This document shows, one piece after another, positions 3,660 through 20,178 of a DNA stretch of 64,000 nucleotides. The first letter of the stretch is position 1. Every line of letters starts with the position of its first letter. The stretch is taken from the NCBI RefSeq assembly GCF_003790525.1, contig NZ_CP033635.1; one strand, 5' to 3'. A program made the translations under genes and the position numbers. This DNA is from Escherichia coli. GTDB taxonomy: Bacteria > Pseudomonadota > Gammaproteobacteria > Enterobacterales > Enterobacteriaceae. Under the pieces are notes generated by a model. That model was not told where the DNA came from, did not search any database, and saw nothing but the letters and a program-made list of their open reading frames with translations.

Positions 3660-4494
<835 letters not shown>

Positions 4495-13886: not shown

Positions 13887-15340
<1,454 letters not shown>

Positions 15341-15342
15341 CG

Positions 15343-16203
15343 TTAATCCTTACTTAGCGCATACACCGTCTGACCACGCAGCGTGAAGCGGCGCTCAAGG
15401 TGGCTAAAGTTTTCAGAGTGACCCGCAAACAGCAATCCGTCGGGTTTAAGGAGCGGAACAAAGCGGCGCAAAATCTCCTGCTGGGTAGTTTGATCGAAGT
15501 AGATCATGACGTTACGACAGAAGATCGCATCAAACGGCCCCGGCACGGTGTACTGTTTCGCCAGTAAATTCAGCGGGGCAAAATCAACATAGTTCGCCAG
15601 CTCCTGACGCACGCGTACCAGCCCTTCATGCGGTCCCGTCCCTCGCATGAAATACCGTTGCAGTTGCTGCGGCGTCAGGTTTTTCAACTCTTCATGGCGA
15701 TAAATACCGCTTCTGGCTTTTTCCAGCACTTCGGTGTCGATATCGCTGGCAAACACTTTCCAGCGTCCGGGCACGGTGCCCAATGTTTCAGCCAGCGTCA
15801 TCGCAATGCTGTACGGCTCTTCGCCGGTCGAAGCCGCCGCGCTCCATACGCGATACTCGCCAAAACGGCGACGTGCGTGATCCGCGAGCAGAGGGAAATG
15901 GTGTGCCTCACGGAAAAATGCCGTCAGATTCGTGGTCAGCGAATTGATAAACGCCTGCCACTCACCGCTGTGCTGATTAGATTCCAGCAAGTTCAGGTAA
16001 TGGCCGAAATCCGTCAGTCCCAGCGAACGCAAACGACGAACCAGTCGGTTGTAAACCATGTCGCGTTTATGGTCGGCCAGGACGATCCCGGCTCGTTGAT
16101 AGATCAATTGACTTATCCGCCGAAAATGCGCGTCGGAAAGCGCCAGGCGCTCGGTCATCTGTAACAATAAAGACGTTTGCCCACAGGGCAGAGATGAAGT
16201 CAT
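15343..16203 (-). CDS. cheR: chemotaxis methyltransferase CheR
   Basis: 286-aa [27 protein letters not shown]... Confidence 0.97.
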
Positions 16204-16221: not shown

Positions 16222-17823
16222 TCAGGATACCACTGGCGCAATTTGTAACTGCGCCGACTCATGTCGTGCTACTTCATGCTCTTCAAGGGTAAATACCGCC
16301 ACGCGCGACGAAAGATGGTCGGCCTGATTCGCCAGTTGTTCCGTTGCCACCGCCGCTTCTTCTACCAGGGAGGCGTTCTGCTGTGTCACCTGATCCATCT
16401 GGCTGACAGCCTGTGCAACCTGCTCAATCCCCCGCCGTTGTTCTTCCGAGGCCGAAGCAATTTCTCCCATAATGTCGTTCACGCGGGTCACCGAACTGAC
16501 AATATCGGTCATGGTCCCGGCGGCGTTATTCACCAGTTTCGAACCCTGCTGGACACGATTGACTGACTCTTCGATCAGCCCTTTGATCTCTTTTGCTGCC
16601 TGGGCGCTACGGCTGGCAAGATTGCGCACTTCACCTGCCACGACCGCAAAACCACGCCCCTGCTCTCCGGCGCGAGCCGCTTCCACTGCCGCATTCAGGG
16701 CCAGAATATTGGTCTGGAAAGCAATGCCGTCGATAACGCTGATAATGTCGCCAATTTTTTGCGAACTGGTGGCGATCTCCTGCATGGTGTGAGTCATGGT
16801 ACTGACCTGAACACCGCCCGCCTGCGCCGTTGTCGCGGCATTTTTTGCCAGTTCCGACGCCTGTCGTGCGTTATCGGCGTTTTGCCCTACCGTGGCGGTT
16901 AATTGCTCCATACTGGCGGCCGTTTGTGCCAGCGATGCCGCCTGCTGTTCGGTGCGACTTGAGAGATCGTTATTGCCTGCGACAATCTCCGCGATACCAA
17001 TGTGCATCTCCTGGCTTCCCTTACGCACATCACTTACCGTCCCACGCAAAGCCTGCTGCATGGTCTTCAGACTGGCAAAAATGGCGGTGATCTCATTGCG
17101 ACCATATACCGCAATCGGACGCGCCAGATTACCCGCAGCAATGCTGTCAAAATGGCTACCGATGATGGCCAGTGGTTGAACAATCATCTTGCGCGTCCAC
17201 CACAGCGCACTGCTGATGTAGAGCGCTGCAACAATAATCATGCTGATAAACACCAGCGCCGAAATGTGATAGTTACGCTGGCTTTGCGCACTGGCACCTT
17301 CCAGCACATGGTTGATCTCCTGCTGCCAGACCTCAAAGTTAACGTCAAACGCATTTTGTGATTCCTGCACCGGCGCTGAGAGGAAATCCGAAAGTTGATT
17401 ACTTTCAAGCCAGGTCGCCTGATGTTCGAGATCGTTGTGCCAGCGGGCAAAACTTTTCTCCGTCTCTTTTTGCAACGCCCTGACGTGCTCGTTGCCCGCA
17501 GTCATCGCCATAAAACTTTTAAACAGCGTGGTGGATTGCGTCAGACTGGCGCGCGCCGTCGTCATCAACGTTTTAATGTCATCCGCCGGATAGCTAAGCG
17601 CCGTCAGAGTGCCCGCTTTGTTCAGCGCGGTACTGGCCTGTAACATTACCGCCCGAGTTTGCGCTAAAGCCGCACGTTGCTGATTGCTCTGCTCGACCTG
17701 ATTCAGTCGTTGCACATCGTCGCGAAATGCCCAAAAAGACATGCCGTTACTGCCAATCTGCAAGATCCCGCAGAGAATCAAAATTAAAAACAGCGTGGTC
17801 GAAATTCGAATACGATTAAACAT
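16222..17823 (-). CDS. tap: methyl-accepting chemotaxis protein IV (dipeptide/pyrimidine) Tap
   Basis: ORF MFNRIRISTTLFLILILCGILQIGSNGMSFWAFRDD...; MCP signalling domain. Confidence 0.95.
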   Translation of the reverse strand: MFNRIRISTTLFLILILCGILQIGSNGMSFWAFRDDVQRLNQVEQSNQQRAALAQTRAVMLQASTALNKAGTLTALSYPADDIKTLMTTARASLTQSTTLFKSFMAMTAGNEHVRALQKETEKSFARWHNDLEHQATWLESNQLSDFLSAPVQESQNAFDVNFEVWQQEINHVLEGASAQSQRNYHISALVFISMIIVAALYISSALWWTRKMIVQPLAIIGSHFDSIAAGNLARPIAVYGRNEITAIFASLKTMQQALRGTVSDVRKGSQEMHIGIAEIVAGNNDLSSRTEQQAASLAQTAASMEQLTATVGQNADNARQASELAKNAATTAQAGGVQVSTMTHTMQEIATSSQKIGDIISVIDGIAFQTNILALNAAVEAARAGEQGRGFAVVAGEVRNLASRSAQAAKEIKGLIEESVNRVQQGSKLVNNAAGTMTDIVSSVTRVNDIMGEIASASEEQRRGIEQVAQAVSQMDQVTQQNASLVEEAAVATEQLANQADHLSSRVAVFTLEEHEVARHESAQLQIAPVVS

Positions 17824-17868
17824 CAACGCTCCCCATCAGGCGGCAATGACCGCGTTAGTAAATACTCG

Positions 17869-19530
17869 TCAAAATGTTTCCCAGTTTGGATCTTGTTCAG
17901 TAATTCGCAGTCGTGGCTGTGCCGGTGGTTGCTCACTGGCAGGACGGGATGGTGTTTGCGGTTTATTGGTGAGTGGGCTGGCTGCCAGACGGAACGCGGA
18001 AACCGCTTGCGTTAAACGACTCGCCTGTTCTTCCAGCGCAGCTGCGGCGGCAGCTGATTCCTGCACCAGCGATGCGTTCTGTTGCGTGACGCGATCCATT
18101 TCCGAAACCGCCAATGCGACTTGATCGATGCCACGGCTCTGTTCATCCGATGCCGATGCAATCTCGCCCATAATGTCAGTCACGCGAGTGACAGCATTGA
18201 CGATATTGTTCATTGTTTCCCCGGCGCTTTCGACCAGCACCGAACCGGTATCAACGCGCGAGACGGAGTCTTCAATGAGGGCTTTGATCTCTTTTGCCGC
18301 CTGGGCGCTGCGACTGGCAAGATTACGCACTTCGCCCGCCACCACGGCAAAACCACGGCCCTGTTCACCCGCTCGCGCGGCTTCAACAGCGGCATTCAGC
18401 GCGAGTATATTAGTCTGGAAGGCAATACCGTCGATAACGCTGATAATGTCGGCAATTTTCTTCGAACTATCGGCGATCTCATGCATCGTTTTCACTACGC
18501 CATCCACCACTTTGCCGCCGTGCTGGGCGGTGTCGGAGGCACTTTGCGCCAGTTGCGAGGCCTGGCGGGCGTTATCGGCGTTTTGCTTCACTGTCGCGGT
18601 GAGCTGCTCCATGCTGGCGGCAGTTTCTTCCAGCGCGGATGCCTGCTGTTCCGTACGGGAGGAAAGATCGGTGTTGCCCGCCGCAATTTCACGGGTACCG
18701 GCATAGATGGCATCTGAACCTTCACGCACATGAGTGACGGTGTCAGTCAAAGAGCGTTGCATATGTGAAACGCTCTGCGCCAGGTCGCCCATTTCACTGC
18801 GCCCGTCAATGGTCAGGGTATTCGCCAGGTTACCACCGGCGATTTCGCGAATGTGAGCAATAATTTTTGCCAGCGGTGTAAGCAACATACGGCGAATGCC
18901 GTACCACGCCACCAGCAGAATCAATATCACCACCAGCGCGATAACCGCCAGTTGCCACTGGGCAAATCGGTAATCATCTGCGTTGTCAGTGACGATATCG
19001 CGATACAGTTTTTCACTGCTGAGGGCGTACTGAGCAAACGCTTCGCCCATTGCATTTTGCATTCCCTGGGTTGGCTGAGCGAAATAAGCTCCAGTATTGC
19101 CATAATCAAGATAATCAATCAGTTCAGTTAACGCTGTGTGATAGTTTTTATATTTTTCATCAATATTACGACTGGTAGCGACCATTTCAGGTAACGGTGC
19201 CATGCTTTTGAATTTTTTATAATGCGTCGCGGCCTGGGCCAATGTTTTCCTGGCGCTATCGAGCAATTCAACTTTGGCATTACTTTGCTGATTGGATGAA
19301 TCCATCATCATCCGCACCGCTGAACGACTCAGGTTAATGCGCGTTTGCAGCATTAAATCCCAGGTTGACGTCAGCTCGCCCTGCTGTTCCCGTAATTGAT
19401 TGGAAACCACAAAGCTCTTCTGGCTATGGTGAAGGGAAGAAAAAAACAGACTGCCGGAAATAAGCTGTAACAGTGCAAATACCCCCAGCACCATTACCAA
19501 CAGCGTGACTACGCGGATACGGTTAATCAT
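17869..19530 (-). CDS. tar: methyl-accepting chemotaxis protein II (aspartate/maltose) Tar
   Basis: [29 protein letters not shown]... ending NWETF pentapeptide. Confidence 0.96.
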
Positions 19531-19561
19531 AAGGCACCTTCCTGAAAACAAGTTGATCTCG

Positions 19562-19616: not shown

Positions 19617-19647
19617 AATAAAAAACCCGATGCGCAGATCATCGGGT
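19617..19647 (-). terminator. intrinsic terminator of motAB-cheAW (mocha) operon
   Basis: Hairpin cccgatg/catcggg followed on minus strand by a long T-run. Confidence 0.75.
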
Positions 19648-19674
19648 TCATTTCAATTGAGGAAATCGGGAGAA

Positions 19675-20178
19675 TTACGCCACTTCTGACGCCGCGCTAT
19701 CTAACAGCGCCATCTCTTCGCTGTTCAGCAGTTTTTCGATGTTCACCAGAATCAACATCCGGTCGCCCAGTGCGCCCAGTCCTGTGAGATATTCGGTTGA
19801 AAGCGTCACGGCAAATTCCGGTGCCGGACGAATTTGCTCCGCCGTCAATGAAAGCACGTCTGAGACGCCGTCAACCACGATGCCGACCACCCGCTGTCCG
19901 AGATTCAGGACGATAACTACCGTGTTGTCGTTATAGTCCACATCCACCTGGCTGAACTTAATTCGTAAGTCAACAATCGGCACAATAACGCCGCGCAGAT
20001 TCGTGACGCCTTTGATAAACGCTGGCGTGTTCGCAATCCGTGTCACCTGATCGTAGCCACGGATCTCCTGCACTTTCAGAATATCAATACCGTACTCTTC
20101 ATCACCAAGGGTAAATACCAGAAATTCCTGGCCTGACGGCTCGCTGGCCAGCTTTGTTACATTCGTCATACCGGTCAT
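19675..20178 (-). CDS. cheW: chemotaxis coupling protein CheW
   Basis: 167-aa [37 protein letters not shown]... Confidence 0.97.

Follow-up and report, generated by a model that had tools for sequence, protein, structure and literature searches.

Homology among transducer genes was reportedly first described in the early 1980s by Krikos et al. (1983), and spontaneous tar-tap deletions are said to have been ascribed by Slocum, Halden and Parkinson (1987, J Bacteriol 169:2938) to recombination between homologous regions. The homology and the laboratory Tar-Tap hybrids have been familiar since the 1980s and belong to the textbook picture of chemoreceptor paralogy in Escherichia coli. In these receptors the nearly invariant hairpin tip carries both the trimer contacts and the determinants for CheA and CheW, CheR and CheB are bound by the pentapeptide NWETF, which is present on Tar and Tsr, and Tap is a shorter receptor of low abundance (PMC4692393). 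Functional chimeras of closely related chemoreceptors are credited to Slocum et al. 1987 and Weerasuriya et al. 1998 in a citing passage of PMC2229510.

The locus described here lies in a window of 64,000 nucleotides (the whole stretch of DNA that was analysed), which is DNA of E. coli SMS-3-5 with 100% identity to NC_010498.1. The gene tap (16222–17823, MCP IV, 533 aa) and the gene tar (17869–19530, MCP II, 553 aa) were recognized as open reading frames, by their RefSeq names and by Pfam, and they are part of an operon on the minus strand with the order cheW-tar-tap-cheR, in which RefSeq also names cheR and cheW. Both proteins show the Tar-type architecture of TarH, HAMP and MCPsignal (PF02203, PF00672 and PF00015), with MCPsignal scores of 191 bits for Tap (residues 323–480) and 212 bits for Tar (325–482) at a cutoff of 34.6. 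Their C-termini are also those of the respective orthologs, as Tar ends with EQDPNWETF and Tap with QIAPVVS, without the NWETF pentapeptide. Compared to the tar-tap pair of E. coli K-12 the genes, their order, the domain architecture and the protein sequence of the hairpin tip are the same and nothing substantive is different, the SMS-3-5 alleles being about 1.5% off typical E. coli at the nucleotide level.

The two genes contain a direct repeat that stays in register with an offset of 1701 nt throughout. Using blastn of the window against itself, 16364–16989 in tap aligned with 18065–18690 in tar (both minus strand; E 1e-111, 634 alignment columns with 74.6% identity). No other non-trivial self-match was found in the whole 64 kb. 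A repeat search found the same zone as two families, D1 and D2, with a spacing of 1701 and 73% identity each. The homologous zone of about 626 nt comprises the methylation helices and the signalling-domain hairpin and spans most of the cytoplasmic signalling domain. In sliding windows of 100 nt the similarity peaks at 0.80–0.84 between 16572 and 16771, and at its centre lies a core block of 168 nt (tap 16582–16749, tar 18283–18450, minus strand) with 85.7% nucleotide identity. This block encodes the MCP hairpin tip (Tap residues 359–414, Tar 361–416), lies within the PF00015 domain of both proteins, as a sequence-only reading of the window had proposed, and is identical in all 56 of its residues. 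The same reading had described near-identical stretches of about 200 bp, and it was right that there is a real nucleotide repeat and where its peak lies in tap. The identity is nevertheless only 83.6–85.7% and the homology extends over about 626 nt, so that “near-identical” overstates a pair with a dS of about 1.1 and a longest exact run of 24 nt, when about 95% or more including the synonymous sites and long exact matches would be needed for that term. The tar copy had also been placed at 18230–18440, which is about 20–30 nt out of register: 16560–16760 compared ungapped to 18230–18430 is 30% identical, and its true partner at +1701 is 18261–18461 with 83.6% identity.

The core block differs between the two genes at 24 positions, all of them synonymous third positions and spread along the block, a pattern that is the signature of selection acting on the protein. 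Its dN is 0 and its dS 1.08, close to the 1.13 of the flanking N-terminal arm, and the C-terminal arm reaches a dS of 3.5. We consider it very probable that the repeat reflects the ancient paralogy of the tandem chemoreceptor genes tar and tap of SMS-3-5. In this reading the hairpin tip, through which the receptors contact each other as trimers of dimers and bind CheA and CheW, is kept invariant in its protein sequence by purifying selection, and outside of this constraint the synonymous sites of both genes have diverged to near saturation. The nucleotide identity of 84–86% is then a consequence of the protein constraint, and neither a recent duplication nor gene conversion or mobility accounts for it. 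Against the refuting condition named in the sequence-only reading, a similarity at the protein level only, that reading is not supported in this point: with a dN of 0 and every difference in the block a synonymous third-position change, the DNA sequences are hardly more alike than the conserved protein requires.

Recent or ongoing gene conversion, which keeps paralogs similar by concerted evolution as in tufA/tufB or the rrn operons, might also maintain such a block in tandem genes, and tar and tap adjoin each other, have the same orientation and demonstrably recombine. Furthermore, codons are identical more often than codon usage predicts, with 32 of the 56 codons in the core block against 21.3 expected (z about 3) and 20–22 against about 12 in windows around 16687–16890. 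This excess leaves room for an old conversion event, and it is also what an old shared ancestry that is not fully saturated would give. For a recent event the evidence points the other way: the dS of the block is no lower than that of the neighbouring N-terminal arm, 24 synonymous differences have accumulated within 56 codons, and the longest exact run is no longer than the number of differences predicts (permutation P = 0.34). Moreover, the unlinked paralog aer shows 73–74% nucleotide identity across the core of the same block and shares with tap an exact run of 29 nt, longer than the 24 nt between tap and tar. The genes tufA/tufB and the rrn operons are likewise paralogs of one genome that are able to recombine, but they are near-identical at synonymous sites, whereas no conversion tract is evident in tar and tap. 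On the basis of dS, run-length permutation and the comparison with aer we rejected recent gene conversion, which we regard as very improbable.

DNA similarity could likewise be preserved by a functional element at the nucleotide level that both genes carry (a structured RNA, a promoter within the gene or a binding site, for example), and besides the slight surplus of synonymous identity the genes do contain some consensus matches that resemble promoters or terminators. The promoter-like matches are as frequent as in shuffled sequences (3 versus 3.0), six of the eight terminator-like matches (3.8 expected, sd 2.0) are on the plus strand and antisense to the genes, and no match of either type is found at corresponding positions of both copies. 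An Rfam scan (E <= 1) gave no family inside tar or tap. As the predicted signals are not common to both copies, we rejected an RNA family or regulatory element in the block and hold such an explanation, also in view of block differences that are all synonymous and dispersed, to be highly improbable. The only hit of the Rfam scan was the known C0465 sRNA in the spacer between cheW and tar. Finally, the only point in favour of a mobile or repetitive element (IS, REP/BIME or MITE) or of a chance match is that two similar copies exist. The 64 kb contain just these two, each of them in frame within a domain that is homologous between the two annotated MCP genes. Neither copy is accompanied by a transposase or by terminal inverted repeats, and chance is excluded by the E-value of 1e-111. 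Dispersed copies or a non-coding site were not found in the window either, and this explanation is hardly credible, in agreement with the sequence-only reading, which had called the repeat paralogous and not mobile.

That reading had also feared that the repeat can confound short-read assembly, a concern that fails because the longest k-mer common to tap and tar has 24 nt (4 shared at k=21, 1 at k=24, 0 at k=25 or above). Between reads of at least 100 nt from the two copies there is a difference about every six or seven bases, and the pair poses no risk to modern assemblies.

In contrast, its suggestion that the block is a substrate for tar-tap fusions was borne out in nature. Using a split DNA query we found an in-register deletion of 1701 bp that fuses tar to tap in three of 5,426 complete E. 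coli genomes (ET474, PEC389 and ETEC4088), where the fused gene adjoins cheR and is annotated as tar. With a chimeric TarN-TapC query, a protein search yielded hybrids of 535 aa from both E. coli and Shigella. The allele whose junction lies in the 24-nt run was not among the hits listed, probably owing to the clustering of the database at 90% identity, and it was found via the DNA search. As in the laboratory hybrids and chimeras, the Tar N-terminus is joined in register to the Tap C-terminus via the C-terminal homology, but the present fusions stem from wild isolates, among them isolates from pig and frog, recur clonally in many assemblies and have junctions that could be mapped to identity runs of 4–24 nt. 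Among the listed papers that use the term “tar-tap”, no title or abstract mentions natural fusions, and in those considered further this term denotes the strain genotype delta(tar-tap).

The diagnostic sites of tar and tap are stable across strains, and a single switch point from tar to tap fits 797–799 of 799 sites in every hybrid, both of which speak against ongoing gene conversion and locate the crossovers (all on the minus strand). In ET474 and PEC389 the switch lies in the longest exact run of 24 nt (tap 16727–16750, tar 18428–18451), as it does in a clonal allele present in 140 collection blocks, and in ETEC4088 and related assemblies it lies in the second-longest run of 18 nt (tap 16868–16885, tar 18569–18586). 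Two of the three crossovers in complete genomes are therefore inside the block at 16560–16760. The fusion in locus L009 has its crossover in an 11-nt run (tap 16940–16950, tar 18641–18651), and those in L007 and L008 have theirs in short runs of 8 nt (16913–16920) and 4 nt (16922–16925); these further junctions, and several of the fusion alleles, were seen in draft assemblies of short reads and are given at the assembly level. Crossover intervals are longer than under uniform placement of the junctions (P about 0.005–0.009), a preference that rests on a small sample of about four independent fusion events. All junctions are located in the hairpin tip or from there in the direction of the N-terminal arm, and none of the mapped fusions has its junction in the C-terminal arm despite the presence of 16-nt and 11-nt runs there. 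This bias to the N-terminal side could reflect selection on hybrid function and not the mechanics of recombination. The reciprocal product that unequal crossing-over would give, a duplication with a TapN-TarC hybrid, left no sign at 4,323 places in 4,321 complete genomes (of the two extra places one is plasmid-borne and the other was taken as a second place of H90, with an apparently interrupted tap), which is weak evidence because duplications are unstable.

The remaining perfect runs of 24, 18, 16 and 11 nt suffice for a rare in-register deletion of the intervening 1701 bp, which would proceed either by RecA-dependent homeologous exchange or by RecA-independent slipped misalignment. The 535-aa product keeps the ligand-binding domain of Tar and obtains from Tap a C-terminus without the NWETF tether. 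It might be that the Tar(N)-Tap(C) hybrids are recurrent alleles maintained in lineages and favoured in certain niches such as pig-associated ETEC, with the 24-nt and 18-nt runs as switch hotspots and the loss of dipeptide and pyrimidine taxis together with an NWETF-less Tar of the low-abundance type as the advantage, but we regard this as rather unlikely and propose it only tentatively. It draws on the numbers of collection blocks in which two of the alleles were found (the allele with the 24-nt junction in 140 and another one in 58) and on at least four independent junctions.

For general biology these results carry little weight, as the repeat is ordinary paralogy and Tar-Tap hybrid receptors were obtained in the laboratory decades ago. 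Fusion of the two genes is rare in wild strains. Nevertheless, natural 535-aa hybrids labelled plain “tar” mean that surveys of receptor repertoires can miss the loss of tap as well as that of the NWETF tail. In addition, the junctions form a small natural data set showing that tandem homeologous repeats at a distance of 1.7 kb can undergo deletion with as little as 4–24 nt of perfect identity within a tract of about 75% overall identity.

A different natural reduction of the tar-tap pair, there to tar alone, is known from uropathogenic (B2) E. coli, which have lost tap (Lane et al. 2006, J Bacteriol 188:5618, as cited in a passage of PMC3559539), and about 1,100 of the 5,426 complete genomes are without most of tap. 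We also considered this deletion as a product of tar-tap recombination and rejected it, since what B2/UPEC strains lack is a 1374-bp segment from within tap, deleted between the 8-nt direct repeats CCTGATTC at 16323–16330 and 17697–17704.

Across the region examined, the window matches the chromosome of E. coli SMS-3-5 (NC_010498.1) at 100% identity, and the chemotaxis genes cheY (13887–14276), cheB (14291–15340), cheR (15343–16203), tap (16222–17823, 533 aa), tar (17869–19530, 553 aa), cheW (19675–20178) and cheA (from 20199) all lie on the minus strand. Tap and Tar both possess TarH, HAMP and MCPsignal domains well over the Pfam gathering scores. Mechanical ORFs extend to TTG codons 5' of the annotated ATG, by one codon in tap (17824–17826) and by seven in tar (19531–19551); the RefSeq ATG starts (tap 17823, tar 19530) agree with the canonical N-termini MFNRIR and MINRIR. 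The cheW–tar intergenic spacer holds a full-length match to the C0465 sRNA (Rfam RF00116; 19578–19655, 111.6 bits, E 1e-21) on the plus strand, opposite to the che genes, overlapping a terminator-like hairpin (19623–19649).

The direct repeat shared by tap and tar exists and is far beyond chance. A repeat search returned it as two families with a constant spacing of 1701 nt, each 73% identical, and sensitive blastn merged both into one alignment (16364–16989 vs 18065–18690, 74.6% identity, E 1e-111), which is the sole non-trivial self-match within the 64-kb window. In 100-nt sliding windows the identity rises from ~0.3 in the periplasmic half to 0.80–0.84 at 16572–16771, and a core block of 168 nt (tap 16582–16749, tar 18283–18450) encodes 56 identical amino acids at 85.7% nucleotide identity. 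The sequence-only reading was correct in identifying tap/tar paralogy, but its description of near-identical stretches of ~200 bp was overstated, as 16560–16760 and 18261–18461 are 83.6% identical in register, the core block reaches no more than the value just given and exact runs extend to 24 nt at most; its tar coordinates (18230–18440) were off register by 20–30 nt.

To explain this similarity we looked at the substitutions themselves. The two copies of the core block differ at 24 sites, every one a synonymous third-position change (dN 0, dS 1.08), with a dS similar to that of the adjacent N-terminal arm (1.13). Identical codons are found at 32 of 56 positions vs 21.3 expected from codon usage (z ~3), an excess that old common ancestry, not fully saturated, would predict, and when the differences were permuted among third positions the longest run in the block was unremarkable (P = 0.34). 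The unlinked paralogue aer has the core of the block (39 residues) at 73–74% nucleotide identity, and tap (over 16604–16725) shares with the aer of strain TW14425 an exact run of 29 nt, longer than any run between tap and tar, which is why a megablast search with the tar–tap region matches aer in genomes without tar and tap. The hairpin tip is nearly invariant and is the site of trimer contacts and of CheA/CheW binding determinants (PMC4692393). Taken together, the all-synonymous differences, dS, codon counts, run permutation and sharing with aer indicate that purifying selection on the hairpin tip, acting across the whole family, has kept the nucleotides similar as a by-product. No RNA family or regulatory signal common to both copies was found in the core block. 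Measured against the refuting condition of the sequence-only reading, similarity at the protein level only, the outcome is intermediate: a nucleotide diagonal is present in the dot-plot, but nothing is kept beyond what the protein requires.

The expectation that the repeat might confound short-read assembly did not hold. Tap and tar have four 21-mers and one 24-mer in common but nothing at k = 25 or above, and any read of at least 100 nt has more than 10 bases separating them; the repeat is no threat to assembly or mapping. This is classical tar/tap paralogy, whose homology and fusion potential are long established and already known; our modest additions are to show such fusions arising and being maintained in wild isolates and to map their junctions to the longest identity runs.

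In order to find natural fusions we searched a large protein collection with a synthetic Tar(N)-block-Tap(C) query. The natural proteins recovered, from E. coli and Shigella, had precisely the expected length of 535 aa and fell into three junction classes at the protein level. Among 5,426 complete E. coli genomes, a split DNA query (the tap 3' end with the cheR start, plus the tar TM2/HAMP region), whose halves join as one match only when ~1.7 kb is missing between them, detected the in-register deletion in exactly three: ETEC4088 (pig, Belgium), ET474 (frog, China) and PEC389 (pig, Korea). Each has one 535-aa gene, annotated "tar", between cheW and cheR. The suggested potential for recombination and tar–tap fusion is therefore realised, in two of the three with a crossover inside the stretch first flagged. 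A single switch point fits each hybrid at all but 0–2 diagnostic sites (797–799 of 799; 799–803 sites tell tar from tap). ET474 and PEC389 switch within the longest identity run of 24 nt (16727–16750/18428–18451) and ETEC4088 within the second-longest of 18 nt (16868–16885/18569–18586). Further junctions in draft assemblies fall in an 11-nt run (16940–16950) and in 8-nt and 4-nt runs (16913–16925). Taken over all these junctions, intervals this long are unlikely under uniform placement across the zone (P about 0.005–0.009, from a small sample). A run of 24 nt is close to the shortest that supports efficient RecA-dependent exchange; the 4–11-nt junctions are more suggestive of RecA-independent slipped misalignment. 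In the indexed collection, 140 blocks contain the 24-nt allele and 58 the 18-nt allele. Loci within each junction class are clonal, differing at 0–2 sites, so that the independent events number about four, and some have been passed on through whole lineages. In one assembly with the 24-nt-junction fusion (L015, 3127–3986) cheR is frameshifted into two ORFs of 210 and 89 aa, which hints at further chemotaxis decay in part of that lineage. For the reciprocal duplication there was no clear case. The tap 5' region was present in 4,321 genomes and matched at 4,323 places; of the two extra places, one is on a plasmid and the other probably belongs to H90, the one listed record with two such places (an apparently interrupted tap).

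By sequence, the hybrid joins the ligand-binding, transmembrane and HAMP parts of Tar to the C-terminal arm and tail of Tap. Slocum, Halden and Parkinson (1987) reportedly described spontaneous Tar–Tap fusions of this kind in K-12, with signalling defects. PMC2229510 refers to that work on the subject of chemoreceptor chimeras. As its C-terminal arm and tail come from Tap, the hybrid is without the NWETF pentapeptide, which tethers CheR and CheB (PMC4692393). It should keep aspartate and maltose sensing, with efficient adaptation dependent on Tsr, and hybrid strains would lose Tap's own specificity for dipeptides (PMC3559539, PMC4692393).

Most of tap is absent in about 1,100 of the 5,426 complete genomes. 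In the one example inspected, the UTI isolate strain 2/0, a 1374-bp deletion plus a 1-nt indel leave a tap pseudogene remnant of 152 nt and remove the tap copy of the repeat; the endpoints are 8-nt direct repeats (CCTGATTC; window 16323–16330 and 17697–17704), which lengthen to 12 nt if one mismatch is allowed. This deletion is unrelated to tar–tap homology. Loss of tap in UPEC was reportedly described by Lane et al. 2006, and deletions of the strain 2/0 type are probably this known loss.

Other receptor variants were also found. An E. fergusonii-type contig (L017, 2501–4130) encodes a single tar-like gene of 519 aa (P0059), with fimbrial usher and SCPU genes upstream in place of cheW; it follows E. 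coli tar as far as ...AFRL, then the last ~5 tap codons (APVVS*) and the tap–cheR spacer, and is an out-of-register tar::tap 3' fusion with nearly all of tap and the Tar NWETF tail deleted. A 535-aa receptor (P0072; L018, 130–1737) on a contig of only 2.4 kb from an enterobacterial read set is tar-like throughout (71.8% nucleotide identity), with a C-terminal half nearer tap (76.3%) ending in ...AVPVVS, and may be an analogous Tar–Tap hybrid in another species. Out-of-register fusion proteins in E. coli assemblies (P0001, 771 aa; P0002, 688 aa; P0037, 680 aa; P0023, 656 aa), with joints such as Tar ...GIDQVALAV to Tap AVYGRNEI... and Tar ...VRNLAS to Tap LKTMQQ..., indicate illegitimate tar/tap deletions besides the in-register ones. 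Many Tar variants (P0012, P0015, P0017, P0019, P0021, P0022 and P0024) carry short internal tandem duplications of 9–26 residues, either alleles or assembly/sequencing artefacts; the 25-residue duplication of P0012, again allele or artefact, lies within the invariant hairpin tip.
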